A program made the position numbers and the translations under genes. A DNA stretch of 61,718 nt, filler included, from Sphacelaria rigidula (Eukaryota), in assembly GCA_964200075.2 (NCBI GenBank). It is 4 parts of 4 records of this genome, joined end to end, with 100 filler letters (N's around TTAATTAATTAA, not from the genome) between each part and the next. Parts side by side here need not be neighbours in the genome. Positions count along the whole stretch, not along the records: positions 46,372 to 61,718 come from CAXNAA020001787.1; 3 more parts are not named here. The stretch is one strand, 5' to 3'. Every line of letters starts with the position of its first letter. Position 1 is the stretch's first letter. The notes beneath the pieces were generated by a model that made no database searches, was not told where the DNA came from, and saw only the letters and a program-made list of their open reading frames with translations. Of the stretch, positions 13,699 to 61,622 are shown one piece after another.

Positions 13699-15290
13699 CC
13701 GATGCTTGGTCTTGCACGAGTCGTACTCCGGGGAACTTATCCGAGGAGCGCACACCGCCCAGCACGAGACCCAACACAGCAAAATATTTTCCTTATCGAG
13801 GGATGGAATATCTCTCAGTCCAGACACCACAGACCCCGGACCACCCAAACACCCCTTCACACCTCACAAGAAAATATCTACGAGCCATCGACGGAAAACC
13901 CTCCAGAACGCAGCATGAAGGTATCTGTAAGCCGCTCCATTAACTACAGGAATGAACTATCCCACAACAGCGTACGAGTTGGGCCAACCAAGAGTGGGCG
14001 TGAACCTCGCTCACGCGACGCACAGCGCGATATCAGGAGTTGGACGCTGAAATTTTGGCAGCAACTTTTTATGATCAAAATGCAGAAGATGACGGGTCCA
14101 GCAAATAAAAAAAAATATATAGGGAAGTTATGGCGATTCGAAATTTTCGGAGAAACTACATAATGCCGTAAGTCCAGGAAAAAAAAGAGAATCTTCAGCT
14201 GGACTCGTGAAGTATCAGATCCTTGGGTGCAGAAATTCTTCCCAAAATTTCAGCTCAAGAGTCGTCGAATTGGGCCGTGCGTTCGCCGTTTTCCGTGACG
14301 CTGCTGCACCCCACTAATACCAAGTGCAGGGTGATTGCTGACGTGAACCCGCCGCATTAAAAGAAAAAAAAACGCAGTCCGATACGCTATCGCTCAACGA
14401 TATCAGACCCACCCTGTACTCTATGCAGTAGAATAACGTCATCGGCAATACGACGCCAATCGAACAGTGGTGCAGTTCTTCGTCATCAGGTAGGTCAGCA
14501 GTTTACAGTGATGTGCTTACATCGGGTTCATTCGGGAAAAACCGGGGAAGCTATGGTGTGAGCAAGCTTCAGCAGCTTTTACGCTGGCCCAGCTCGTACA
14601 TGGACAGCTGATAGTGTGCACTGATTGTTTCCTTATGAAAACCATCCGTAGGCCGGGGGCGCGGTTTTCGGGGGACTCCAAACTCGGCCGCCTCACCGGT
14701 GTGTTGTCAATCACCACATGGGTTCATCTCTCGGACTCGCGAATCAATCCGTACCAATATCTCAGAAACCGTCTACATTCTTACTCCATGTCCCAGATGT
14801 CATTTCAACATGTGAGTCCACTTCATTTCAAGAAGTACAACCTCGTCTGGCAGCCTAAATACTTGACTTTAGAGTACCCCCAACCCCCCCCCCGAAGACA
14901 CCCATGAGGCAGTGTTAACGAAACCCGTCGCTATCTCTGAAAAGTGGCAACACCAGAAAATGAAGCAACTCATTCGAGGTCGTCATCAAAATGCAAGATG
15001 ATCAGTACGCTTCGGGCCGAGCAATCTTAGCAGAATGCAGGTTACCCCGTGCGACTGGCCGGACACGCCACGGCGCTTCGCGCTTGGTGATTGATTTCGA
15101 GCCTGGTCCGGCGAAAACCCGGCGTGCTCCATCCCGGGTATGTAGGGATGCGAGGCCAATGGTCACATGACTACGGCATGCAGATCATGAATACCACCCC
15201 CCTCTCTGTTAGGAGTAGGGACGGTGCTCCGTCTCGAAAGGGATGCGTGGTCAATGGTCACACGACCAAGGTAAGCAACAAAAAAAGTGT

Positions 15291-15329
<39 letters not shown>

Positions 15330-15358
15330 CACCGAGAGGCACCGCCCCCCCCGGACTC

Positions 15359-15459
15359 NNNNNNNNNNNNNNNNNNNNNNNNNNNNNNNNNNNNNNNNNN
15401 NNTTAATTAATTAANNNNNNNNNNNNNNNNNNNNNNNNNNNNNNNNNNNNNNNNNNNNG
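15359..15459. other. Artificial contig-join spacer (N-TTAATTAATTAA-N)
   Basis: Six-frame-stop linker embedded in N runs; same design at ~30817-30915 and ~46272-46371. Confidence 0.95.
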
Positions 15460-22728: not shown

Positions 22729-25700
22729 ATGGGTGCCCACAGTATGCACAGTCATCGGTGGCGAAACGCACGGCGGGTGTACAAGAAGACGGCACCGAGC
22801 CCCGGGCCCTTCCTTACAAGGTTGGACACCTACTTCACGTCATGGCTGCTTACGGGGGCAGGCCCCGATGAACCGCGAAATACCAGATACTCGTGGGAAC
22901 CTCGCCGAGCTCCTCGTGGAGCTGCGCCCAGAGTATCCTCTGGGGAGTGTCTTCGTTTCCCCGAGAATCGGGGAAACGAAGCTTTGGGAGGAAGTGGAGC
23001 AGCTTCGAGGGAAAAGCGAACCGTTAGGTTCAACCCCAACGTGCGGGTGAGTGCAAAGACAAGTGTTTGAACGGTGTTGTTGGCGGTGGTGCGAGATGAG
23101 ATCAGCGTGGCGTAGAGCAGTATACGATCGGTATCGTGTGTTGCGGTGTGATGGAGATCTTGCAGCATATGCGATGGTCTCGTGATCGTCCGATGGTATC
23201 GATATCTGCGTTCGTTTGATGTATGTATCGAGGAGGTTTGGCGTTTCTTGAGTCAGCGTCCGCGAGGAAGAGCTGCGTCTAGGGCAGTGGTTCAGTATCA
23301 TTCGGTTTCCATGCACCACCAGCACAGAAGCACGCTGCGGAGCAACCTGTTTTGTTATTGTCCATCCGCTTTCACCAAGAATCTGATTCTACCTAGTTGG
23401 TACTTGCTGGTGATAGCCTAGATTGCTTGGTCATTGTTCGGGACCTCTCCAAGCAGCCCATATGACTTGGTTCGTAGGCGAGCTGATCTCTTCCATACAC
23501 CCCTACGACTCCAGGGTACGTACGGAGTGGTCTCCGCATCACTCCAGAACTCAGTCGCTTCACAGCCTCTTTCCATTTCACCATATCAGTCCGATATTTT
23601 TTATTCACGGTCGACTTGTGCTAACGTCTGGATATCGGTGTGCGTCCTTGCTCAGAGTGCAGTAACATGCTCTCAACACGTGAACCAAGTTCAGTTTCGG
23701 AGGTCTGGCTACGACTGGTAGCTCAATCTCTTGGATTTAGAGTGCCCATCTCTGCCAAACCTCGGACTGAAGACACTTCCCACGATAGCCCCCCCCCAAA
23801 AAGTGCATGATTTGGGGAGGCAAAATCTTCACGTAAATCGAAATGGGAAAAGCCGAGCACAACGAGCAGCTGCGAATTCCTACGCTCGGGTTCATTCTCG
23901 CCGATACCACCCATATGAGGCGCTTCATCCAGCCTGAACCCAAACATCAGGCGCTGTATGGCCATTTTTTTCGTCACACTTTTGGACTGGTTTGGGGGGG
24001 GGGGCTACCGTAGAAAGTGTCTGAAGCAAAAAATCGGTTCGAGGCATGGTGTGCAATTCTTCGCGTATACTTCATCCCGTGTACGAGCTGGACCGGCCTA
24101 GACACGGGCTTAAGCTCTCAAGGTAATATCTCATCGACACAGACGAGTTGAGCCGTAATCCGCACATCGTATTAATAGCCTGATCAAGGAGAAGGTGCTC
24201 TTCTGCTCGAAAGTGTGGGCTATTTATTTTTCGTTGATTACACCCCATGTTGAGTATTTTCTATACCGTACGGAGATAGTGTCCATACTAAAGTCTGTAT
24301 GAAACCCCAAACGATATATACCGCGGGTGATGACAATTCTGGTGTGACCATTCCTTGGAGCACGGGGAAACGATCGGTTCCCTCACCTTCGCCCAATTCG
24401 TCATATATCTCGAGATATGGCGCACATAAGGTCATATACTAACATCCATATGATACGAGCAAAGACACTGTGTGCACTAAATCTGGATATCGCGTCTCTC
24501 TTTTTCAGAGTTGTGCTTCGAAATTCGCATGGAGAATCGCTAGTGCATAATACGATACTGTTCCGAACTCCGTCCGGTGTGGTTTGGCTGAAACGCGCCA
24601 TCTAGGCTCAACTTTGAGAGTTGGGCCTCCAAATTTGGTACGGAGAAAAAAGATAGGACATAATAATACGAAAAATCCCGGACAGGAAGTTTTGTTTTTT
24701 TGTGAGCTGGAGCCATTTTCCTGAAAACTGGGTATTGATTATTGCCATTAAATCATACAAAAACACCCTTCCCGTCCGAGCGTAAGTTTTGTCATTATGC
24801 CCTACGCATTTTCCGCACCAAGATTGAAAGTCCCACTCTCAAAATTGAGTCTAGACGAGGTCTGCATTCCACAAATTCGCGTCTCGGCCGGCCCAGCTCG
24901 TACCGTCTGCTCATTTTTCTGTGATTCATCATGATTATGTTTTTCTACTTTTTGATATACTGTACACTACAGCATCGAATCCGCGGGTGTCATGTGTATT
25001 ATTGTTCGGTTTTCATGTCAGCCTGTTTGTCAAGTACGGTGCCCTTCTCCGAGCAAAAACATGGAACGAGTTTCCTTATTGCTCGAAGTAAGCGTGGAGA
25101 AAGGATAGCGCCCTTCTCGGTGATTCTCGTAGTGGGACCCGGGCTCCTTGGTTGGGTCTCGGGAGGATGTTTCGCAAAAGTGGTGATAACTCAAGTCAGC
25201 TCGCTCTCCCCTCTCCGGGAATGGGTGTGTTGCCCTGAGTCAGCTTAGCCCGTTTCCCGTTCTCCTCGCTTGGTCGTATGACTAGAACTAGCTCGTTCCT
25301 CAGGATGTTCTCGATTGGGTCGTGTGACTGCAGTCAGCTCGTTACTCCCACCAACGCCATCCCCACGAATACGGCAGCGGCGAAGTCGTAAGCACACGAA
25401 TCTCCTCACCAGCACTTCTGGGAGGGCAGCACGTGCACACTGCCAACTGTATCGTATTTCGGAAAACGATGTCATTGGACCACCTATCGTGATGAATGGA
25501 CCCTCGCCTGTAGCAGTATCCACAGCACGTATGTACGTGTATAACATGGGATCTCACCAAATGCGGATGGATTGTTTTTCTTGGGATGAGTCTTGGTAAC
25601 CTTGATGAGCGTCAGAACATTTTCGACGAAACATGCAAATGCACTTTCCGGCCGTGATGTTTGACCTCGCCCATGCTAACAAAAACTATCTTCACCATTT

Positions 25701-27231
25701 GTAAAATCCCGTCTATACAGGGATCACTGCGCCCCAGTGCGGTTGGTGTACATTTGAATGGTCCAACTGTCATCGATAAGGTGGAGAAAATGTGGGGCAA
25801 ATTCTCGATGCCGTGGATATTTTCTTTGAACAAAGTGTTTCATGTCCACATCATCAAAAGCGTCAGGTCGTGAGTAGACAAAAGATACATTGGCCGCGTT
25901 TGTTTGACGAGAGTTGATGCGGTGCGGGAGTGCTGATCCAGTCCGCGAGACCAAAATACCAAGGTGTGCCCCGGGGAGAGATGGGTTGATCCCTTGAGAC
26001 CGCGATCTTGACCCGAGGAAGAGAAGGGATATGGAGCACGACAGAACGCATCCCACAATAATTCGACCTCCGTTCATTTCCATTCAAAACGTTCGCTCGT
26101 TTTCTTCAGAATCCCCTGCTATTACGAGACTATCTCAAGTACGGGTGTTTTTGTTGCCAATCGCTCCGTTGGCTCAGTAGGTAACCACCTTCTGACGGTT
26201 GAGACGTGGGTTCGAATCTAGTTGAAGTAACACGGGTTATCCGGGACATTTTCTCTCATCATGCCCAACAGTAGAGAGCGACTATGTTGCAAGTGCACAA
26301 AGTTCAACTTCACGATCGACGAGGGAATAGGAACCTCTGAACCCTTCTCTCGATAAACAATAAGGCAAGCACCACAGAAGGAAGGTGAGGCGCTGAACCT
26401 AAATAAAAATGCAACAACTCCTGTGATGAACTTCATCCTGTGTGACCCCAGCTGATACGGCGACACACACCGAAAGACGTAGACTGGCGTCCAGATTAGA
26501 TGGGATGCCAACACACACACACACACAAACACATTGGTTTGGATCAGCGAGGCCCCACATCATGGCCGGAGGGTGCGTTTGCGTCGTTTGTCGAAAGTAT
26601 TTCGGTGCTCATGAAGGTTCCCGTGGCCCATCCTCAAAAGCAAACCCATCCGCAACTTGCATACTCCCGAGATATATCCGCTCAATGATGAAAACGTTTT
26701 ATTATTGTGCTCTCCACGACCCTGTCCACCCTCACGCGTCTACCCGCCCGTCTTCCGCAGGTTCGTCCACTGCCGCGAATCCCGGACGAAGCGCCCCCCG
26801 GAGAGGAGTCCAAAACCCCCGATGACGACGGACAAACCGGCGAGCTCTCTTCTCGTCCGGCGCGCTCCCAGCTCGCCCAGGAAGAGATGGAAGCAGTGGC
26901 GGGACTAACCCCGGAAGAAAGGAAGAAGCATTTTGACGAGCGCTGCCGCAAAATTCGGGACCACCGCAGAGTCCTGCTCGGTAAGCAGTATGATGCGCGG
27001 CACCGCGTCTACGCAGATTATACGTGGAACCACTACATGAGGAGGCAGGATCGTCAGCGGGGGGCCAGTCTCTTCCCGAAGAGGCGGGGGAGCTGGGGAT
27101 ACTGCCGGTCGCTATACCCGTCGAGCAACGACCGAAGCACTCCGTTCTGGTGGCCCGTGCCCTGGCATAGGGAGCGCGGGTGGTGGCAGCGGCACATTCC
27201 AGAAGTGCCCTTCGAGGTGGCCGCCTACTAG
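22729..27231 (+). CDS. Two-exon hypothetical protein (~262 aa), exons 22729-23046 and 26761-27231
   Basis: ATG at 22729; strong donor CGG|GTGAGT at 23046; acceptor TCTTCCGCAG|G at 26761; the phase-0 join gives KRTVRFNPNVR|VRPLPRIP; exon 2 is GC-rich and open to TAG. Extra internal or upstream exons cannot be excluded. Confidence 0.6.
23772..24021 (+). mobile_element. 250-bp MITE (family A), intact, TSD TGAA
   Basis: TIR GACACTTCCCACGATAGCCCCCC / GGGGGGCTACCGTAGAAAGTGTC; TGAA on both sides. Confidence 0.88.
26163..26530 (+). mobile_element. tRNA-derived SINE, full-length copy, (CA)n tail
   Basis: A box TGGCTCAGTAGG and B box GGTTCGAATC in the head; body shared with 50574-50775 and 55455-55572/60291-60506; ends in (CA)n. 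Confidence 0.8.
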
Positions 27232-30816: not shown

Positions 30817-30915
30817 NNNNNNNNNNNNNNNNNNNNNNNNNNNNNNNNNNNNNNNNNNNNTTAATTAATTAANNNNNNNNNNNNNNNNNNNNNNNNNNNN
30901 NNNNNNNNNNNNNNN
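30817..30915. other. Artificial contig-join spacer
   Basis: N-TTAATTAATTAA-N. Confidence 0.95.
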
Positions 30916-31207
30916 NGGGGGGTATCACAGGGGAAGGGGGGCCAACGAGGGGGGGGGCTCCCCGCCTAGCCGGGGCGTCCCCCCCCCCCCCCCCCTTCAT
31001 GCATTCACGGATGTTCACAGCTTTGTGCCGTGGGCTCAGTGCTGCTTAACACGTCGAAGGTGCGGTGTCCTTTCATTAACACGTCGACCGTGGATGACTT
31101 CAGCCGCTGACCAATAAAAATTGAATGTTCAACGATCAGATTTTCCGATTTTTTCATCGTCGCCGAAGGATAACATGCGTGCCGTCTTTTCCATTGTGTC
31201 GTTGCAG

Positions 31208-46271: not shown

Positions 46272-46371
46272 NNNNNNNNNNNNNNNNNNNNNNNNNNNNN
46301 NNNNNNNNNNNNNNNTTAATTAATTAANNNNNNNNNNNNNNNNNNNNNNNNNNNNNNNNNNNNNNNNNNNN
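46272..46371. other. Artificial contig-join spacer
   Basis: N-TTAATTAATTAA-N. Confidence 0.95.
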
Positions 46372-48454: not shown

Positions 48455-48769
48455 TCTTCGTATCCACACCAAATCTTCAGAATATGTTTCCATTTCTTTA
48501 CTTGCTTGTAGCTATTGACAACTACTACACGCCATACCAATTTGGATTGCGATAACCGACATGTGTTGGGGTTCTAGGTGAAAAACCAATTTGGGGGAAT
48601 TTCAGCGATCTGATCGGATCATCTAAATTCCCAAAAATGTCTCTTCATCTAGAACCCCAACATGTCGGTTATCAGGATCCAAACCTCTATGGCGTGTAGC
48701 AGTTGTCAATAGCTACCAGTAGGTGAAGAAGTGGAACTATATTCCGAAGATTTTGTGTGGGTAAGAAGA
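48455..48769. repeat. ~315-bp imperfect palindrome inside a dispersed repeat
   Basis: GTAGCTATTGACAACTACTACACGCCATA / TATGGCGTGTAGCAGTTGTCAATAGCTAC, centre near 48612. Confidence 0.85.
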
Positions 48770-49989
48770 TTTTCATTCTCCGAGTTATCATCCTCAATGA
48801 AAAATCCATCCCTAATTTGTAAAACCCCGTGTTAATGTACGAAAGTGCGATTTTGGGCAAAAACTTGTCCTTCTTTCACCCCGAAATCGAGACAAAAATG
48901 TGCTTTCGCACATACCGTTTGGGGGACCGGAAGACCAGGAAGCTCCCGAAATAATGTTAGGGGGGTCGGGCGGGATGAGGATGAGGTCGTCCATATGAAA
49001 GTCATGCACCATGACTTTAGGTCACGAAAAAGCACTGCATTTGGATCGAACCTCATTCTCTTGTTCAACCTCATAAATGAGAATCCGCTGTTGAAGGCCG
49101 TCCATCTGGATCATGCACAGTTTTTTTAAGTAAAATCTTACCGATGCAACAAATAAAATGGCCCACTCTCGCCGTCTAAGGGTCAAGTCTTCGACGGCGA
49201 GTGGTGATCCATTTGTGAATCGGCATCAGTTTCACTTGAGAAAGAAATGGAAATGATACCGATTCACGTATGGACCAACGCTCGCAGTCGAGAGGTAAAA
49301 GGCCATTGTCGAGAAAAATACGTGCCCGTTCGTGTCCCATCCATCCACCCCAAACCTAGGTCTTTGTTATCATAGATTGCCCTGTGCCCAGGGCGCTTCC
49401 AATTTCGATTCATATCGGTGTTTGTGACGTTGCGGTCGTGGATTGCGGCGGTTGAACCGGAGTGGTCTCGGCTGGGCCCTTGTTAGAAGTGGCTCTAAAA
49501 TTAAGGTCTGCCGGACGCACCCGGGGTATGGTGATGTGTCGTTGCACGGAAGCGTTAAGTTTTATTAAAGCATAAATCGTATTCGTGCTATCGCCGTCGC
49601 CCTACATACGCAAGGGCCCGCAGCGAGCCAAAGCTGAGACGCGAGCCGTTTCCCGGCACATTCCCGCTAGGTCGTCCCACACGAGTCCCAGCCACTACCA
49701 TGTCTGTTTTCAAGTACACGTACAGAACTTGCTTCCCAGTACGCTATAGGCTATAAGTCGCAAACTGCTGTTTCTCGGGCAGACAGGAGACAGTGTCAAG
49801 CGTCAAGCAGCTACACGCTGGGCCGAGGGTCCCCATATCGGGAAATGACAGCACCGCCCCCCTCCAGGTTGCCCAAATCTCATTCTGGGGCCGTAGGAGG
49901 GAAGGGGGAGAGGACCCCCGAGTACTCTATTTGAGGAGGGGGGGTACCCCCCTGATCGATGGATGATGGCGATAGTAGTTGCTGTATGT

Positions 49990-50402: not shown

Positions 50403-50573
50403 CGAAGCTGTATGGTAACACAGCCGCTATGGCGCGAAAGCCACGTGGAACACTCCACACCGTGCAGATTTTTACACACTGTTGTCTCGAAGTGTAGCGT
50501 TGCAGTTACCGATTTCAAGTAAGAGTATTACACAAATTACAGTCGGCAATATACTCTATACTATGCAAAACGA

Positions 50574-50775
50574 TTCGACCTAACGATCGACGAGGGAAAG
50601 GGACTGCTGAGCCCCTCTCGCAATAAAAAAAAAAAGCAAGCACCGCACAAGGAAGGTGGAGAACTGAACCAAACAAAAAAGAAAAAACTCCTGTGTGGCC
50701 TTCCTCTTGTGTGACCCCGGCTGGTGCGCCGACATACACCGAAGGTGGAGGCCGGCGTCCAGAATAGATGGGACG
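50574..50775 (+). mobile_element. 5'-truncated SINE copy, cut just before its CA tail by Gypsy element 1
   Basis: CGATCGACGAGGGAAAGGGACT...CCAGAATAGATGGGACG aligns with 26310-26510. Confidence 0.8.
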
Positions 50776-51043
50776 TGTGACGCAAATATACCGTTACGTT
50801 GAGTTGGGAGTGTGATGATTGGATAATGACTGGGGAGACGGGGATTCTGGAGGATTCTGGGAGTATCCCGGATAATGACCAGGGATTCGGGCATGATACC
50901 CTGCGGGTCGATGAGGCTGTGCCTACAAGGACACTCCGGATAATGAAATGTTGTAAAGCCTGACAGCTGCAACTGAGCCCAGTACGACTGGAGAGTCCCT
51001 CAAACAGCATTGATTCAGCAGTTTTCTCCTGGCTGGCGTCACA
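50776..51043 (+). repeat. Putative 5' LTR of Gypsy element 1 (268 bp)
   Basis: 8-bp perfect terminal inverted repeat with TG...CA ends, starts exactly where the SINE is interrupted; partner LTR absent from the window. Confidence 0.75.
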
Positions 51044-51339
51044 ATATCGATATTAGTGCTGGTACCTAGCAGAAGCTGCTGGAAGAATTTCGGCGGAACA
51101 GTCTGGTAGCTGGGGACAACTTGATTCACCACGGACGCGTGGAGAAGGTTTAAGCTAACGTGGCTGAAGAAAGGTGGCTGGCCTGTGATTGATCCGGACT
51201 AGAGACTTGCTGAAGCTGAGTCCAGCGGGAGTTTGGAGGCTCCTACGACTGTGTGGTGCGGCGACGAAGAAAGGGTGAAGTGTGCCATTCGCGATGGTCC
51301 GCTGGCCTGCGAAAGGTTCGCAGGTAGCCGGCTGCTAGT

Positions 51340-52254
51340 ATGGCGACCGACTCGCGTGCTGCGTGCAGCGTGACGCCCGTAGCTATGCGGGAAGAGTTGC
51401 GACCTCCCCACTATGGGGATAGGTACTCCGAGAGTGCAACTCGCACTTTCCACGTCAAGTACTCTGAGTATAGGGAGCGTATGGAGCACGCTAATGCAGG
51501 GGGTGCTGTGCGACAGCAGGTAGTGTCGATGCCTCAACGAGTGAAAAGGCATGTACAGAGAGTGTTAGCTCGTGTGGAACATGGTGAAAGCACAGTTACC
51601 CCGCCGCAATTGGTTGCGGTGATCATAGAGCATGTTGGGCATGCGGCGGGCGCCGAGGTGAAGCTGACCCAAGCGTCCGCGACCGTGGCGAAAGCGGTCG
51701 CCATGGAGTCCCGGGGAAAGGTGATGCTAGAGCGGGTGGAGCCAACCCTGTCCAATCTGGAGAAGTACTTCGAAAAACTCCAAACGTTCAACTAATATAT
51801 CGTTCTCCCGATTGTGAGTTTATTTCCGGCCCGGCTGCAGTAATCAATGAGGATTTGGTGGAGGGGTTGGCGCCGAAAAAATTAAGCAAGCCATGCTTGT
51901 CGAGTTGCAGCACGAGGCAAATTGGAAGGCCGACCCTTAGCTGGTAATGGACACCGTGTGGCCGAGGCCAAGGGATGGGGGAAGATAGAGGTGTTCGGCC
52001 AGTCGTCCCTCTCCACGTCGAAGTCTTTGCACCACCACGGCTCGAAATCGACCGGCCGCGCCGCGACCATCACTTGCCACCGCTGTGGCCAGGTCGGTCA
52101 TTACGTGCGCGATTGCCCAACGTCTTCCGGTGGGGAGTCTGGGCAGTCTCATGGCGCGCGCCATCAGCATCGTCAGCACAAGGGCAAACGACGAGGTGAT
52201 CGGGGAGGTGGCGACGGCGGATCCTCCGGCGGTGGAGGGTCGCAGTCGAGTTCT

Positions 52255-52287
<33 letters not shown>

Positions 52288-52461
52288 GGATCTGGTTCTG
52301 GGTCCGGCGCCGCCGTAGGTGCTGCTGTTCCGCAACGGGCGGTGCAGGTGGGATCGACTTCTACAGTGTCGAACACTGCGCTGGCGCCGGTGGTGGCCCC
52401 GGTGGCGACGCCGGCAGCAGCGTCAGGCGCGACGCCTGCTAACGCGCTGGTCGGAGTTTAG
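51340..52461 (+). pseudogene. gag: Gag of Gypsy element 1 (interrupted), CCHC knuckle
   Basis: ORFs 51340-51795 and 51922-52461; CHRCGQVGHYVRDC; Gly/Gln-rich tail. Confidence 0.85.
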
Positions 52462-52665
52462 CCACATTTTTGCTGGCTGGGGGTCGTACCCGCCGGCGAT
52501 GCTGCTTGAACCTGCCGGGATGTCTTCACCTGCGCAGCTTGCGCAGCCGTGGCGTTTAGTGGGATTGGCGACTCATCGGTCGGCGGATGAAGGGCCAGTG
52601 GAGTTGCGGACAAGTACGTTCCTGCGAAGCTGTGTCTTCCAAATTAACGGGAGTGTGGAGCTATT

Positions 52666-54150
52666 GTGGTTCGGTCTGTGGTGGATTCTGGCGCCCACTT
52701 CACGAGTCTGCCGGTGCAGATTGTCGAGATGTTGGAGCGCCTTCTCCCGGGTGTGCCGCTACGCATTCCGTTTTCGCTCGGAGCGCGGCAGACGGTCACC
52801 GGGTCGGGTCAGTATGTTTCCGTCACGGAGCGTACTGTTCTGCTGCAGGTGGCCTTCACGACTTCCTGGGGGCCGGCGCCGTTGCCTTCGATCTCGTTCG
52901 TGATCATGACGGGGTCGGACGGCGTCATTCTTCTAGGGTTGCCGACGCTTCAGGATCTTGGAGTCGACTCGTATGCGCGGTTGTGGGACTCCATGACGAC
53001 GCGGATGCCTCCGTCTGGTCCGCATGTGGAGACGCCCGCCTTTTTGGGCTGTCGTCGCGTGAGCTTGTCGGTGGATGTTTTTCAAAAAGCTGAGGGGCAG
53101 GTGACCGAGGAGCGGGATGAGGCGGTGGAACACTTGGTGGAGTGCGGGCCGGAGATTGTCATGGATCCGGCGGAAGAGGAGTTCTCTCGGAAGGTCGCGC
53201 TGGAGGAGAGCGTGACGGACGCTGTGGAGAAAGGCCTCAGCGTCTCAAAAGCGGAGCGCCCGCGCGGCACCTTGCATCGCTGCGTCAACGCGTTTCGTCG
53301 TGCGCTGCGGGATCATCCCCCTGCGCGCGTGGAGCCCACGCGTGTTCAACTAAAACCTGGGCCGTCCACGGTGAAGACGAAGCCGCGGCGGTACGATCCG
53401 GTGAAGTCGAGCTGGTTAGCGTCGTGCATGGCGGCTCTTCTGGCGCTCGGGTTTGTGTTCTGGAACTTGTGGGCGGTGTGATCCAGTCCGGCTATGGCGG
53501 TTCCGAAGAAGGACTCGTTCCGCCTGGTAAGCGACTCCAAGGCCGTGAATGAGCAGGTTGAGAAGTCGCCTGGTGTGATGCCCAACCAAGAGTCGGACAT
53601 GCTTGATCTATTGAGTGCTCGTTTTTTGATAAGTTAGACATCCTCCAAGGTTACTGGCAGATGCCGTTGGCGGAGGAGGTGCAGGAAATTTTCATCATCA
53701 GGACTCCGTTTGGCTTGTTTACCCCGAAGCGAGTGCCGCAAGGCGTGCTGAATGCCACGGCATATTTTCAAGGTATCATGGCAGAACGTTTCGGCGGCTA
53801 AAAATGCAAGATATTAGTGGATGATGTGTTTTTTTTTGCGGACACGGGTGACGAACTTTCGAACACGCTTGATGATATCTTGGCTCGTTCAGAGAGTGTT
53901 GGTTTGTTTGCGGCTGCGCACAAGTGTACCTTTTTCGCTGGTGGACTCGTGTGGTGTGGGAAAGTGTACTCACACGGACGCGTATCTCGTGACCCTGTCA
54001 GATTGAAAGGCTTTTCTGACATGCAGCGCCCGGGGAAGGCCGGAGAACTCATACAATTCCTTCAGGCCGTTAATTGTCTGCGTACCTTGTTGCCGCGTAT
54101 GGCACGAATCTTAGCTCCCTTGCGTTTTTTCCTTGCAGAATTCATGGCGT
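52666..54150 (+). pseudogene. pol: Pol of Gypsy element 1: aspartic protease and reverse transcriptase, with stops/frameshifts
   Basis: VVDSGAHFTSL; SPAMAVPKKDSFRLVSD; KLDILQGYWQMPL...TPFGLFTPKRVPQGVLNATAYFQ; ILVDDV; FLQAVNCLR. Confidence 0.92.
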
Positions 54151-54151
54151 C

Positions 54152-54395
54152 CTGGGTGAAAAAACAATTTTAGCGTCCGATCGGATCATCTAAGTTCCAG
54201 AAAATTCGTTCTTCACCTAGCACCCCGACATTTCGATTATCGAAATCCGAATTTGTATGGCGTGTAGTGGTTGTCAATAGCTACCAGCAAGTGAAGGCCA
54301 TGTTCCGAAGATTTGGTGTGGATACGAAGATTTTCATTCTCCGGTTTCTCATCCCCAATAATTAATCCATCCCCAATTTGTAAAATCCTGTGTTT
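54152..54395 (+). repeat. Second copy of the right arm of the 48.6-kb palindromic repeat, abutting truncated Gypsy element 1
   Basis: GATCGGATCATCTAA...TATGGCGTGTAG...GAAGATTTTCATTCTCCG...AATTTGTAAAA colinear with 48610-48825. Confidence 0.8.
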
Positions 54396-55337: not shown

Positions 55338-55454
55338 GTTTGCTACTCCCCGGGTATTGGAGTCATACGCTCGAACGTGAGGTGGACATCCACGGTACAA
55401 CGAACGTAGGTCCCACCACAATGCGGTCAGAATCAATCACTTGTCATAAGTTCG

Positions 55455-55572
55455 CCATAAAATGTGTGCTACGACGGTTGGGTTGTGGATTCGAGTCTCG
55501 GAGCGATCTGAGATTTTTTCTCATGCCCAGTGGTGGAGAGCGACCATGTCGTGGGTACACAAAAATTCGACT
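55455..55572 (+). mobile_element. 5' part of a SINE copy split by Gypsy element 2
   Basis: B-box-like GGATTCGAGTC and TCATGCCCAGTGGTGGAGAGCGACCATG align with 26205-26310. Confidence 0.75.
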
Positions 55573-55830
55573 TGTAGCCTCTGCCAGACGATCTGGACAA
55601 GAGGACTATCCACGAGGGACCCATCCAGTAGCACCGGCCTCGTGCTCGACAAATCCTTTCTTCTCACTTGTTACGATCACGGAGTGATCCTCTACAGACC
55701 ACATCAAGAGCTAAGCAGCAAGGAGCCACACAGAAAAGGGTCATCAGTCCAGGAACACCTGTCCCCTGCCACTGCTCCAACCATGCATGCGGTTGTACTG
55801 AAACCTCCTTCTTGGTACAATTTGGCTACA
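55573..55830 (-). repeat. 3' LTR of Gypsy element 2 (preceded on - strand by GGGGGTGC PPT-like tract; extra partial copy 55831-55909)
   Basis: Direct repeat of 60033-60290. Confidence 0.95.
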
Positions 55831-55988
55831 GCACCCCCAGTCCCCTGCCACTGCTCCAATCATGCATACGATTATACTGAAACCTACGGCTTGGTATCAT
55901 TTGGCTACAGCACCGCCGAAGCGAGTTCAAGACAAACGAACGAGCTTGACAACCAAAACAAATCCAAGGCGAAATCGCATGCGCCAGA

Positions 55989-58560
55989 TCACAAAGAAAT
56001 ACCATACTCCGACGCTAATTTACTGATCAGCGCCCGAGTCAACCGCATTTTACGCAGTCCCTTCAAAACAAATCCAGGCATAGAAGAATGAATCTTGCGA
56101 AGAGACTCCCACGTACGTTCTTCAGCACCGAACCCTCCCCAATCGACCAAAACAATGATATCATCATTGCCATCCTCAGCGACGTGCACCAAAGCATTCA
56201 TCCGGCATTTACCTTGAGCATACGAATGCTGAAATACATATTTTAGTTCCGCAGTGATGTGCAACTGCGAGTCAGCATAGAAACGTAAACGAGCGACACG
56301 GGCAGAGTGCACGGCGCTAGAAATAATGTTTTGCACCGAATACACGTGAGCGTGATCGGCTCTGACCACACGCCACGGACCTGTCCACGTGGACATCAAG
56401 TTTGGCGTCACACCTTGCCTCCGAACACGGGTATACAATACGAGATCGCCAACTGCAAACTTGGGCAACACAGCCTGGTCCTGAGCAAGCTTGCGTTTGG
56501 TCTCGCGAGACACCGCGACAGAAGCTTGCACTTCGTTACAAAACTGCACTTGCTCGTCAACCACGCCCCGAACCTTGTCACGCAACGAAGCAGCATCCAT
56601 GACAACGACGTTCCACTCGTTGCCAGTAACAGGAGCCAGCGCGGAAAACGCTGTACGCGGCGCACGCCCAAACATCACACAATATGGAGTGTTACGGTAG
56701 CGTTCACGGAAAGAAGTATTCAACGCCCACTGAGCGGCTGGCACAACATCAACCCATTCAGACACCGGCCGTCGCTGTTCTGACAAAATAGATCGCAACG
56801 CACGAATGACCTCTTTCACCATGCGTTCACAAGCACCATTCGACCAAGAGGTATACGCAATAGAAAATTGGTGTTGCACCTTCAGCGCATCGCTCAGCTG
56901 CGCGGTCACTCGATTCTTGAAGTGCGTGGCGCTATCACTAACCCAAACACGTGGTACCCCCAGAGATTTGCACCAATGGAGCAAGTGCTTAGCCGTTACC
57001 TCGGCGATACGAGCCTTGGTCGGCTCCAAGCAAACGAAATTGGACAACCATCCATGATAACTAAAGCGTACCGAAAACCATCCTTCTCAGGCAAATTATT
57101 AGCACCTTCAGGTCCGGTACTTCCGACGTACAGAAAATCACAGTGAACTTCACCTGGCGCAGTACCATGCACAGTATCGCCATACAGACGAGGTACAATC
57201 TCACCAGCACGAGTGTCTACACAATGCAAAGACTGGCGAACAAACTCGCGAACGTGGGAGTCCATGTGAAGACAAACACAGTATTCTTTCAAACGAAACA
57301 GAGTCGGCGACACACCACGGTGACCAGCCGACCGCATGTGAGCGCGCACCATCAAAGAGTTTGTAGAGCCTTATCATCCGACGGAATCCACAAAACATCA
57401 CTACTGACAACACGCACGCGAAACAAACCATCGTCAGCCAAAGCAGCTTGACCGAAAGTCGAAGAAAAAGAATGAACACCGTCGTCGCCGACGGTTTTGC
57501 GCTGCGCGGTACGAATGAGATCTAACCAGGGCGGCGAATCATCGGCATCACACGGACTGTACACGGCAACAGAACGAACAGGCACGGTAGGAACCTTCAC
57601 CAAGCGAGACAACAAATTTCCCCAACAGTTTTGCTCTCCAGGAATGTGTTCACTGACATACCTATATTGTTGTTGGGCTCGCAGCAACTCCCGCATATCT
57701 TCTTGGCTTGGCATCACCACCGGAGACTGTTGTACTTGCGCGCTCACCGCCTGATAGTCGCTGACCAAACGGACTGTGTCCCTCTTCGGCACCGCCATCG
57801 CCGGACTCGCCCACACAGCCTGAATACTTCTATCCAACAAACCAAATGCCACAAAAACTGCGATGCATGAAGCAAGCCACACGGCCTTCACCGGATCGCG
57901 GCGACGAGCCAAATTATCGCGCAGACAATGTGCGCCATCAGCGCTTAGGCCCTTCTGCTCGGCCTGCTGCTCGCTATCCTCAAGCGCACGTTCTTTGGCA
58001 CCTCTCTCCTCCACAGGGTCCATGAACATGTCCGACCCCCGATCGACCAAGCGCCCTACCGCTTCATCCGCAGGAGTCTCCTCCTCATTGGCGCTCTGGA
58101 ATGACCGTATGGATACGATCATACGCCTTGAAGCAAGGTAACTGGGGTTTTCCACGCCGGTTTGCACCGGCACAGCACGCGGGCGTAACTTATCCAACGC
58201 CAGTGGATACAGATAAACCCCGAGCTCCTTCATCGTCACCATCCCAAATAGGACCACATTGTCTCTACCGGGCATGACAGCGAAAGTAATGAGCTGCAAC
58301 TGCACAGCCCCCCACGGCGTACGCACGCTAACTGTAATCGGCACCGAATTGTGCGTGACCGTCACGGGAGCACCCGTGGCGGTCTGTGCCGTTTGCGGTC
58401 CGTTTTCGAACGGAATCTAAAGCTGAGCGTTGCCAAACTGCGAAGGTATCTGTTCTAGCAACCCCACACCGATCGACGTGAGCGCGGACCCAGAATCCAG
58501 AATAACGCGGGCCATGAACGAACCTACAGAACCAGCCAAGGCTGACTCTGCGCGTGAGCA
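55989..58560 (-). pseudogene. pol: Pol of Gypsy element 2: protease, RT N-terminus, RNase H end, integrase, chromodomain (frameshifts/stops)
   Basis: Protease VILDSGSALT; WASPAMAVPKRDTVRLVSDY; HIPGEQNCWGNLLSR; AHMRSAGHRG...SLHC; VHCDFL, WVSDSATHF, SNGACERMV; WTGPWRVV; LVDWGGFGAEERTWES. Confidence 0.92.
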
Positions 58561-58799
58561 TTCAGCCTTGCGATCAACAGGTACCACTCCTGCCGAAGAA
58601 CCCTGTTTTGTTCTAAGACTCACCTGACGCCAGGGCTGCCCTCCAGCACTTGGCATCGATGGCTGCGAATCATCGGTCCAACCAGACCAAGTCGTCGAAT
58701 ATGCAGGCGGCGCTATTACAGCCGTCGCAGCAGTAGGGAATGCACCAGACACGGATCCTGCCTGGCCGAGAGATTGCGAGCTCTTCGCTCCACCACTTC

Positions 58800-59839
58800 T
58801 CACCGAAGTATTTGCATTTCCACGTACACTGTCCGCCCCGCTACGGACGAACCATAAGATCCAGAGTCACCACCTGATGACGTAGTGGGAGAAACAGCAG
58901 CGGAGGAACCACCATCCGCCGCCGATTGCTTGCTACCGCGGCCGCCGCGCCCGCGTCCCTGATTGGCGGCCCCGTCCACCGTGACGACCGCCCCGATATC
59001 CTGATGAATCTCGCGCATTGCCCTGTGCAGCGCCTTGATCGCGAGGCTTGGGGCAGTCCTTGATCCTATGTCCGGTGTCGCCGCAGTTGTAACACGCGCG
59101 AGTGGACGACGCTCACGAAGACGGCTGCTGTTTCTGTTGCTGTTGCTGTTTGCGGCGCATACCACCTGCACTTGTTGCAGAATCGCGTCGGCTTTGTGCT
59201 TCAATGAACTTCCACTGGTCGGCCGCCTCAAATATGTTTTTGAACCGTCGGGGTTTTTTTCCAGCCGTCAACATACGTTAGTACACGTCTAACATACGCC
59301 TTGAACTCCGGGGGCGAAATCCCGTCCACCGAAGCTATGGAAACCGACTCGGCTGAGCTTGGCAACCAACTCCTGTCTTCCGCACGGTACATGGCTTGTA
59401 CCGTCAGATTTTCTGAGAAAAACCTTCCCATAGCTAAACTGACCATCATTGCACAGTCCTTGACAGATGTTCTACCGCTGTGTGGCATAATAAGAACTCT
59501 ACGCAGGTCTGCTACAGCCCGCGCAGTGTCATACTTTCCGTCGGTTGTAGTATACCCGGCATGCTGCTTCACAGCATCAAGCAATTCATCGGGGGTCATA
59601 GCCCGACGGTTCTTGTACATATTTTCAAAACACCGATGAATGTATGTAGGGATAAGTTGACCTATGCTCACCCTCCCATGCCTCACAACTCCTGTACTAT
59701 TGGATAAAATCAGCCTCTCTAAATAGTCGAGATAAGCGGCATAAAACCTTTTTGATGCCTCTTCCGTCCACACTTTGCCATACTTAAGCGGTTCTAGTGG
59801 CTCACCCAACACCAGCCGCGCTGCCGCCGCTTGAGCCAT
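58800..59839 (-). pseudogene. gag: Gag of Gypsy element 2 (frameshifted), CCHC zinc knuckle
   Basis: ORF 59228-59839 homologous to gag of element 1 (LEPLKYGKVWTEEASKRFY vs LRPPHYGDRYSESATRTFH); CYNCGDTGHRIKDC at ~59050-59095 in another frame. Confidence 0.85.
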
Positions 59840-60032
59840 GTCGTCTATGCTTCAAACACTTCACGGAGAGACTCTTGCCTGACTTGTGCGTCCTCCAGCT
59901 CACGGAGCGTCCCCCACTGCTGTGCGCTTTAAGCTGGTCTCATCCTGTCTGCGGGCTAAACTGGCTCTAAGCTGCAGCCCACTTTTCTAAGCCAAACTCC
60001 TCTAACAGAGTGCCGAAAGAATATCTAGATAT

Positions 60033-60290
60033 TGTAGCATCTGCCAGACGATCTGGACAGGAGGGCTATCCACGAGGGACTCATCCAGCAGCACTGGCCT
60101 CGTGCTCGACAAGTCATTTCTTCTCACTTGTTACTATCACAGAGTGATCCTCTACAGACCACATCAAGAGCTAAGCAGCAAGGGGCCACACAGATGAGGG
60201 TCATCAATCCAGGATCACCTGTCCCCTGCCACTGCTCCAATCATGCATGCAGTTATACTGAAACCTTCGGCTTGGTATAATTTGGCTACA
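60033..60290 (-). repeat. 5' LTR of Gypsy element 2
   Basis: Direct repeat of 55573-55830, TG...CA termini with 6-bp inverted ends. Confidence 0.95.
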
Positions 60291-60506
60291 GACTTCACGG
60301 TCGACGAGGGAAAGGGACTGCTGGACCCCTCTCGCGATAAAAAAGAAAGGTGAGCACCGCAGAAGGAAGGTGAGGTACTAAAACAAAGCAAAAAAGAAAA
60401 GACTCCTGTGTCGACCTTCCTCCTGTGCAACCCCGGCTGGTGCGCCCACATATACCGAAAGATGTAGAACGGCGTTCAGAATAGATGGGACGACAACACA
60501 CACACA
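60291..60506 (+). mobile_element. 3' part of the SINE copy split by Gypsy element 2
   Basis: Continues exactly after the TSD (GACTTCACGGTCGACGAGGG) to the CA tail. Confidence 0.85.
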
Positions 60507-61622
60507 CTCCCCAAGTATTGGAGTCATACGCTCCAGCGGGAGGTGGACATCCACGGTACAACGAACGGAGGTCCCACCACAATGCGGTCAGATTCAATCA
60601 CTCGTCACAAGTCCGATGCCCGTTCCCCCTCCCCCTCGAAGGAAGGAGGAAACCTGACCCAACACTTACCCCGCAAACGATATCGTGTTCCGATGACCCG
60701 GAGCCTCGGCTAGACCGCCTCGCGGCAGTCATGTGGGGGTAGGCACCTCGAGCGTTCGGAAAGGTTTGCTCAAGGTATTGTGGGAGTTGAACCCACTACT
60801 TGAAAACCCCTCGTTAACTTGGCGCAGCGAACGCGCCACTACTCTGACGAGCTTCGGCCCTAGGTCCGGTTTACGATGTACGATACTAATATCAAGTCAT
60901 TTTGCACTATTAATACAACAACTCTACGAGCTGAGTCACGGTGAACACCCAAAATTGTGTCATCAGCAAATGCCTTCCGCAAAACGCACCCAATAGTCGC
61001 ATATATGATATCATACTGACCGCAATCAACAGACGAAGAGGGTGACATAGCCGAATGTTTGTTTGAGGCCGTAGCAGTGGCGCTATGGTCGAAAATGTGC
61101 CTTCACCAATCAGGCTCTTCGAACTCTTCCGAGATCGAAATTACGAATTCCAAGCCCACTTGTCACCCAATCTCCACATGCTTCAAATCGTAGTAACCGC
61201 CATTGGCATGGGAATCTAACGAGAATAACATATTTAATTTTGAAACGATTACTACGGGGGTCGGATTATACCCGAAACCGTGATGTTTCGGTGATGTCAG
61301 GTGTTGGCGTCGTCTAATTTCCACGAATGATACCCACGAATGACCCAGGGAGCCTCGTGACGGTGTTCGCTATATCTGTCGTAGAAAAGATCAGATCGCC
61401 CTTAAGCTTGGCATTTCCGTAGGTATTGATGCTCCAAATGAAAAAAGTGTATTCTTGACAATATTTCATGGTTTCTCCGTTCTCTACCGGCTTCCGAGGG
61501 TCCCAGTATGAAGACCCCCGTAAGGCGGTAGAGAATGCCCTAAAAGAAAAATAATAAAATGACGCGTCCTGGGACAGTCCAAGGAACACATTAACCAAGT
61601 TTGGTGAAGAAAATCGGAATCC

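Follow-up and report, generated by a model that had tools for sequence, protein, structure and literature searches.

The window analysed here is a stretch of 61,718 nucleotides from Sphacelaria rigidula (GenBank assembly GCA_964200075.2), which is made up of four separate pieces rather than one continuous locus, and the last piece carries both of the Ty3/Gypsy long terminal repeat (LTR) retrotransposons that are the subject of this work, in the following called element 1 and element 2. In each of them, the last A of the 5′ LTR is also the first base of a perfect palindrome, which takes the position of the primer-binding site (PBS), at which a host transfer RNA (tRNA) would be expected to pair, and palindromes of varying sequence recur at every visible LTR/leader junction of the clade to which the elements belong. 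This lineage probably begins reverse transcription without a tRNA. That the palindrome is itself the equivalent of the PBS, i.e. the place at which the minus strand is started in a Ty3/Gypsy lineage, probably of the chromodomain type, devoid of a tRNA primer, is the reading developed below, for which acceptance and doubt are about evenly balanced.

The start of the minus strand is a defining step of every LTR retroelement and, to our knowledge, only two solutions to it are established, namely the host tRNA and the Tf1 self-primer. If the palindrome does act as proposed, it would be a third way to begin reverse transcription in these elements, next to priming by a tRNA and by Tf1-type fold-back, and possibly the same solution as that reached by the GalEa Copia elements of fungi. 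A palindrome at the PBS position has been described once before, in GalEa, and here it marks a whole Gypsy clade; no description of a palindromic PBS in Ty3/Gypsy was found in the CC-licensed papers of PubMed Central and bioRxiv, subscription journals being outside the scope of the search. What appears to be new, as judged from sequence, is that a Gypsy clade has a palindromic candidate for the primer site that resembles the one of GalEa but lacks the second hairpin arm. The compensatory, symmetry-keeping change observed among its members makes this a general and testable phenomenon; furthermore, such families will be overlooked, or ranked too low, by LTR-annotation tools that require the PBS to match a tRNA.

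Two elements and their LTR/leader junctions

Element 1 lies on the plus strand. Its 5′ LTR (50776..51043, 268 bp) runs from TGTGACGC to GCGTCACA, the latter forming the 3′ end at 51036-51043, and the terminal A is at the same time the first base of a 12-bp perfect palindrome, AATATCGATATT (51043..51054), with a predicted homoduplex energy of -10.9 kcal/mol. Read across the junction, the sequence is ...CTGGCTGGCGTCACA, then ATATCGATATT, AGTGC and TGGTACCTAGC or, with the divisions marked from the LTR onwards, ...ctggctggcgtcaca, atatcgatatt, agtgc and tggtacctagc. The 5′ leader extends from 51044 to 51339, up to a gag ATG at 51340, which lies 297 nt downstream of the LTR end and aligns with the N-terminus of P0002, a full-length relative introduced in the next section.

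No 3′ LTR of element 1 remains within the window, and in the preliminary description of this DNA the LTR end at 51043 had been drawn from an 8-bp inverted repeat. The boundary is now firmer because, beyond that inverted repeat, it is backed by the interruption of another repeat, by the end-to-end alignment with the LTR of element 2 and by contigs of one sequencing run, X10. Five runs from two studies, labelled as an alga or as algae metagenome, share the stretch, each of them with less than half of its words and no RNA run being listed; the comparisons with them used contigs and gave repeat boundaries. On the left side, an abundant repeat ending ...GATGGGACG is broken exactly between 50775 and 50776, where TGTGACGC begins. 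Uninterrupted copies of this repeat run ...GATGGGACG-ACAACACACAC (60493-60505), and 29 contigs of run X10 have a loose end behind 50775 that reads into this same continuation, ACAACACACAC. Two contigs, both from this single run, match the element 1 locus only from 51031-51032 onwards.

Element 2 lies on the minus strand, and both of its LTRs, each of 258 bp, are present: the 5′ LTR (60033..60290, TGTAGC...GCTACA) shows ~92% identity to the 3′ LTR (55573..55830), and a target-site duplication, AGTC, is found at 55569..55572, with the other copy at 60291-60294. The LTR end is thus fixed by the 3′ LTR together with the AGTC duplication, and on its last A begins a 14-bp perfect palindrome (60020..60033, minus strand): ATATCTAGATATT directly follows the 5′ LTR and, joined to the terminal A, forms AATATCTAGATATT, for which a homoduplex energy of -14.0 kcal/mol is predicted.

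The sequences and coordinates of both palindromes stand as they had been reported. The two LTRs had also been said to show no evident similarity, which is refuted by their global alignment: 159 of the 282 columns are identical (56%), with a score 5.8 standard deviations above 300 shuffles, and the similarity is found in both termini (TGTGACGCAAATATACC vs TGTAGCCAAATTATACC, and CCTGGCTGGCGTCACA vs TCTGGCAGATGCTACA) as well as in internal blocks. Against this background of 56%, the arms of the palindromes are identical in 12/12 positions, and the sole difference between the two is a 2-bp indel (TA) at the exact centre, which preserves symmetry. Identical arms and a central TA that keeps symmetry had been noted correctly, but the second palindrome had also been taken as independent support for the first, and this part of the argument is lost: since the LTRs and the proteins of elements 1 and 2 are homologous, the two palindromes are not independent and their shared arms are inherited.

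The pattern AATATC-N0-4-GATATT occurs twice in the stretch, with 0.01 occurrences expected (100 shuffles). Perfect palindromes of at least 12 bp number ~22 distinct ones in 61.7 kb, when (TA)n runs and the three spacers between the pieces are excluded, and the non-random feature is position, in that each of the two considered here has the final A of a Gypsy LTR as its first base. At 24405-24418 there is a further perfect palindrome, ATATCTCGAGATAT, the arms of which are similar to these; it is without LTR-like ...ACA context on either strand, and is probably unrelated to those at the LTR junctions.

Palindromic junctions in related elements

On the basis of the order of pol domains, the TG...CA LTRs, the target duplication and the polypurine tract, both elements belong to Ty3/Gypsy (Metaviridae). 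When the protease-reverse transcriptase (RT) open reading frame (ORF) was used as the query, two polyproteins of full length were obtained, P0001 and P0002, with identities of 70-72%. In P0002, the RVT_1 (residues 718-871), RNase H (954-1100) and integrase (1205-1376) domains follow one another in Ty3/Gypsy order, and the Pfam Chromo model matches residues 1606-1637 with 19.0 bits, under its cut-off of 25.1; a chromodomain motif is visible by eye in P0001, in P0002 and in the integrase ORF of element 2. The next closest representatives among 1.84 billion proteins share only ~40% RT identity, and a query alignment of five of them led to 80 metagenome loci. A metagenome scan with the two closest proteins gave no relatives, and none was found among the viral contigs scanned. 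In an RT-RNase H tree of 82 rows, built with FastTree, a clade that comprises 19 rows and is locally supported at 100% includes both element 1 and P0002. Its main sister subclade has 56 rows, among them 47 loci that carry no label of PBS type.

The loci were surveyed for perfect palindromes of at least 10 bp that begin on the A of a CA, and the candidates were checked for LTR pairs, for a polypurine tract and then TG after the pol stop, for terminal inverted repeats and for a gag ORF shortly downstream. All of the clade elements in which the LTR/leader junction is visible (11/11: element 1, L007, L009, L010, L011, L012, L014, L016, L017, L021 and L041) have a perfect palindrome of 10-16 bp at the terminal A of an LTR end of the form ...[C/T]ACA. 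The palindrome of element 1, AATATCGATATT, is also that of L012 and L021, while AATAACGTTATT is found in L014, a close relative of L012; L016 has AGTGAATTCACT, L009 and L010 have ATTAGCTAAT, L011 has ATTGATCAAT, L017 has ATCGCGCGAT and L041 has AGTAATTACT. In L007, the palindrome, (C)AATAATATATTATT(G), measures 16 bp and takes in one further base at its start, the C of the LTR's final CA. Relatives thus differ by symmetric changes, as in AATATCGATATT vs AATAACGTTATT and in the central TA insertion of element 2. The tabulation of PBS-position sequences across the clade therefore bears out what the preliminary description had proposed from two elements, namely that symmetry rather than tRNA complementarity is conserved at this position: the sequences vary, all 11 visible junctions are perfectly palindromic and none has a TGG-type site.

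A gag ATG is found 34-240 nt downstream in L007, L009, L010, L012, L014, L016, L017, L021 and L041, the contig of L011 stopping short of this gene. For L007, independent confirmation of the LTR end comes from its sister contig L008, the 3′ LTR of which has the same ...TTTACTACA end followed by different sequence, and for L014 from its LTR pair; in L012, L021, L011 and L017, the polypurine tract, TG...CA and the palindrome come in this order after the pol stop. A palindrome of the ACA type, of at least 10 bp and within at most 320 nt upstream of the gag ATG, is present in 14 of 16 elements with ~0.16 expected from shuffles, the two misses being L007, with its palindrome one base longer, and L038, the LTR of which ends in ATA; this set of 16, in which element 2 is not counted, was chosen through palindromes, and the 11/11 within the clade is the fairer figure. 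Across coding spans, only 18 of 16,417 CA sites begin such a palindrome.

Outside the clade, a second and separate palindromic group comprises L037 and L038, each with an LTR pair that fixes the LTR end, together with L029/L036, L040 and L063, and distant loci with LTR pairs (L026, L033, L050, L057 and L079) carry ordinary TGG-type sites beside the LTR. When only the 11 loci with an LTR 3′ end set purely by repeat alignment are considered, four have a palindrome (L014, L037, L038 and L061), five a TGG-type site and two are unclear; L061, with TGGGTACCCA directly after the repeat end, was left unclassified. The palindrome label was withdrawn from L015, in which the candidate lies inside a long ORF, and from L023, which has no gag ORF behind the candidate; L020, L032 and L067 are unverified palindrome candidates.

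As a separate observation, the palindrome is followed by AGT in 5/18 elements (L012, L016, L040, L063 and element 1, at 51055-51057) and by AGC in two more; the GT of AGT can pair with the AC of the LTR end ...ACA across a bulged A, and might either mark a site of cleavage or lengthen the stem.

The start of reverse transcription

Three observations speak for the palindrome as the place of priming: it coincides exactly with the LTR/leader boundary, the last A of the LTR being part of it; its self-complementarity is kept clade-wide while the sequence changes; and neither a TGG-type site nor a Tf1-type LTR complement is found alongside it. TGG is absent from the 16 nt next to the LTR end in element 1, element 2 and 10 clade relatives, and in element 2 from ~38 nt. 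The window contains no tRNA genes, and an Rfam scan of the piece with both elements revealed no tRNA-like or other relevant RNA. A tRNA site at the junction itself was considered and rejected, in that the sequences vary among relatives yet stay self-complementary, unlike any tRNA 3′ end. With respect to Tf1-type priming, none of nine complete LTRs holds a stretch of at least 7 nt complementary to the PBS region, the longest exact complement being at most 6 nt in 9/9 LTRs, which is no better than in shuffles.

A comparable arrangement is found in fungal Copia elements. The GalEa report (BMC Genomics 18:410, 2017, PMC5445492) describes a Conserved Hairpin Site that is palindromic when taken with the final A of the LTR (ACTGATCAGT or ACTAATTAGT), and which is proposed by the authors to replace the PBS through a mechanism unknown to them. 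The present elements resemble GalEa in having no tRNA-type PBS and a short palindrome directly after the 5′ LTR, final A included (AATATCGATATT in element 1). However, GalEa belongs to Ty1/Copia and the present elements, with their RT-RNase H-integrase order, to Ty3/Gypsy; in GalEa, a second conserved 9-mer 12-41 nt downstream pairs with the first to form the hairpin, whereas none is found here (0/18 at up to one mismatch); and the present palindromes are longer (10-16 bp) and more variable.

Self-priming chromoviruses include the Tf1/Tf2, Tf1/sushi and Tcn1 groups (PMC6317226, PMC5445492), and plant surveys report self-priming for the Tcn1 and TAR lineages and 6% of elements without PBS (PMC6317226). 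The PBS of Tf1 is described as pairing with the initial 11 nt of the transcript, so that its complement is inside the LTR, and as not palindromic (PMC5445492). Likeness to Tf1 lies in the Ty3/Gypsy affiliation, the putative chromodomain-type integrase tail, the lack of a tRNA PBS and the use of own RNA as primer, which is demonstrated in Tf1 and proposed here, and the difference in the lack, in the present elements, of an LTR complement to the PBS region of at least 7 nt (0/9 complete LTRs). With the canonical tRNA-primed chromoviruses they share TG...CA LTRs, the polypurine tract, the order gag-PR-RT-RH-IN(-chromo), i.e. protease, RT, RNase H and integrase after gag, and the 4-bp target duplication, but the present clade has no TGG-type site at the LTR end.

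How the palindrome might prime can be outlined as follows. The standard LTR scheme needs pairing at, or a few bases from, the LTR end and, therefore, the 3′ end of the primer would pair within the palindrome; as the 3′ half of the palindrome (...GAUAUU) complements its 5′ half (AAUAUC), the simplest primer would be the element's own RNA. The palindromes of two co-packaged genomic RNAs would pair to give an RNA duplex of 10-16 bp, which would also hold the dimer, and a nick at the palindrome's 3′ edge would then open one strand, much as an RNase H cut of the element RNA makes the self-primer of Tf1. The new 3′-OH, paired to the ...CA end of the partner's LTR, would be extended into U5-R, leading to minus-strand strong-stop DNA, and the uncut partner would retain the palindrome for the second strand transfer. 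Homoduplexes predicted across the elements range from -6 to -16 kcal/mol. The full model, in which a widespread Ty3/Gypsy lineage (of algae and many uncultured eukaryotes) merges dimerisation and priming in one element by way of a nicked RNA duplex, is put forward tentatively and is, on balance, somewhat doubtful.

Several points weigh against the palindrome as the start of the minus strand. Most junctions of the relatives were located via the palindrome first and their context was validated afterwards, the LTR ends being independently fixed only in element 2, L007, L014, L037 and L038; moreover, eight of the 19 rows of the clade are without a resolved junction (P0002, for which only the protein is available, L008, L013, L015, L018, L019, L020 and L023), and the FastTree tree provides local support values only. 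The exact 12-mer AATATCGATATT is shared by elements with a pol identity to P0002 of only ~31-33%, and arms of the form AATA...TATT are seen in 9/18 elements; such a sequence preference beyond symmetry may reflect a conserved partner (RT, nucleocapsid or RNA). The predicted duplexes are AT-rich and modest. Furthermore, the RNA duplex, the cut and the 5′ end of the complementary DNA are inferred only, contig data being unable to reveal ends, and cutting one genomic RNA costs that RNA.

Among the rival explanations, the palindrome could be a dimer-linkage or packaging signal only, priming being left to another primer of low complementarity or to one that pairs elsewhere, which is considered unlikely. 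The dimer initiation sites (DIS) and PAL sequences of retroviruses and Ty1 are short palindromes of the 5′ leader that allow two genomic RNAs to pair and so serve dimerisation; in the present elements, monomer folds predict weak pairing of the palindrome or none, and homoduplexes of -9 to -16 kcal/mol are plausible as kissing or extended duplexes. However, the known sites, which are placed in hairpin loops or farther downstream, are accompanied by a separate tRNA PBS, whereas here the palindrome takes the PBS position and covers the exact start of the minus strand, the last base of the LTR included, and none of the 11 clade members shows another primer site beside its LTR end. Alternatively, and with a distinctly smaller chance of being right, priming might occur by fold-back in cis, the RNA being cut after the palindrome and snapping back, or forming a hairpin with the U5 and leader flanks, in a GalEa-like manner. 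The final A of the 5′ LTR lies inside the palindrome as it does in GalEa (PMC5445492), and in element 2, L007, L040, L038 and L012 pairing is possible between the end of the LTR and leader sequence just beyond the palindrome; this flank pairing is, however, marginal (mean z -0.56 over 17 elements), and local folds at the palindrome are no more stable than those of shuffles (z +0.5). Furthermore, a palindrome of 10-14 nt leaves a hairpin stem of only 3-5 bp, rich in A-U, and a GalEa-type second arm, as a copy or complement within 80 nt downstream, is found in 0/18 elements at up to one mismatch and, at two mismatches, in 2/18, both in AT-rich sequence.

A DNA-level role, i.e. a site for a dimeric protein of the host or of the element just inside the LTR, or else mere chance, is given little credence. 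Dimeric DNA-binding proteins typically use palindromic sites, and the recurring AATA...TATT arms (9/18) hint at sequence-specific recognition, but such a site has no need to begin exactly on the terminal base of the LTR, free sequence change with perfect symmetry is not expected of it and the elements would be left without any primer site; chance is excluded by the position and the recurrence of the palindromes. Finally, the palindrome would be incidental if TGGTACCTAGC (51060..51070, plus strand), which starts with TGG like the complement of a tRNA ...CCA end, were a displaced PBS, as the preliminary description had cautioned. This candidate has been rejected and its chance of being right is minimal. 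The acceptor 5′ strand of the tRNA that it implies would begin with A. It also lies 17 nt past the LTR end, too distant to prime because, in the standard strand-transfer scheme, these 17 nt would become LTR sequence and be added to both LTRs, which disagrees with where the LTR of element 2 ends. Neither element 2 nor the relatives have a counterpart of TGGTACCTAGC, and no TGG is conserved among the latter at a fixed distance. In addition, three runs each include one contig with a joint from 51060 to 51168, which skips 51061-51167 and at which other letters may intervene.

Coding regions, abundant repeat and other features of the window

Downstream of its leader, element 1 consists of a decayed gag-protease-RT region (51340..54221, plus strand), recognised from domain matches and from tblastn with P0002, residues 11-951 of which are covered at 52-68% identity. 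It has a CCHC zinc knuckle, matches RVT_1 weakly, is frameshifted and is cut off after RT, at ~54221, by unrelated sequence. In element 2, the gag-protease and integrase region, with its putative chromodomain (55992..59839, minus strand; tblastn, ORFs and a weak rve match) starts with the gag ATG at 59839 and encodes an integrase 60% identical to that of P0002, and RT-RNase H is deleted, residues 758-1099 of P0002 being missing. Both copies in the window are therefore dead, element 1 being truncated and frameshifted and element 2 being without RT-RNase H. On the minus strand, upstream of the 3′ LTR of element 2, lie a purine-rich tract (55831-55849) and a partial duplication of the LTR (55829-55910), which is a tandem copy of the first 82 bp of the LTR; as this 82-bp duplication adjoins the 3′ LTR upstream, the polypurine-like tract falls in the duplicated block.

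With regard to the truncation of element 1, a long hairpin at 48541-48683 matches, on both strands and below gathering scores, two plant microRNA families derived from miniature inverted-repeat transposable elements (MITEs), and the repeat at 48598-48833 is related to 54166-54394, where element 1 is cut off. A MITE-like insertion may thus have truncated this element.

In prokaryote genomes, a match to this Gypsy family was found on a single contig of 1,171 bp, inside one bacterial metagenome-assembled genome (MAG). In this MAG (G001), labelled Myxococcota, the fragments L001/L002 and L003, on C535 and C454, show an RT 84% identical to that of P0002 and a gag-protease 59% identical. No LTR or leader is present in these fragments, which are most likely due to eukaryotic contamination of the bin.

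The abundant repeat that was the insertion target of element 1 is represented by the copy at 50573..50775 (plus strand; self-BLAST and contig depth), by those at 26294-26522 and 60291-60507 (self-BLAST) and also by 55345-55571. Its summed contig depth is ~100 times that of its neighbours, and loose ends are seen at 50573 and 50743. Both Gypsy elements sit inside copies of this repeat, at different positions. The repeat has a (CA)n-like tail, and a B-box-like sequence, GGTTCGAATC (26210-26220), precedes one copy; it may be a tRNA-derived short interspersed element, and no tRNA match was obtained for it with Rfam or ARAGORN.

The four pieces are joined by three artificial spacers, each made of 44 N, TTAATTAATTAA and 44 N (15359-15458, 30817-30916 and 46272-46371), which recur at a spacing of ~15.4 kb and were scored as a 10-copy repeat family in the repeat search. 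Homopolymer runs of G or C, 16-35 nt in length, are dispersed across the pieces (10426-10665, 15290-15330, 49939-49952 and elsewhere), and may be either biological or an artefact of assembly or sequencing.

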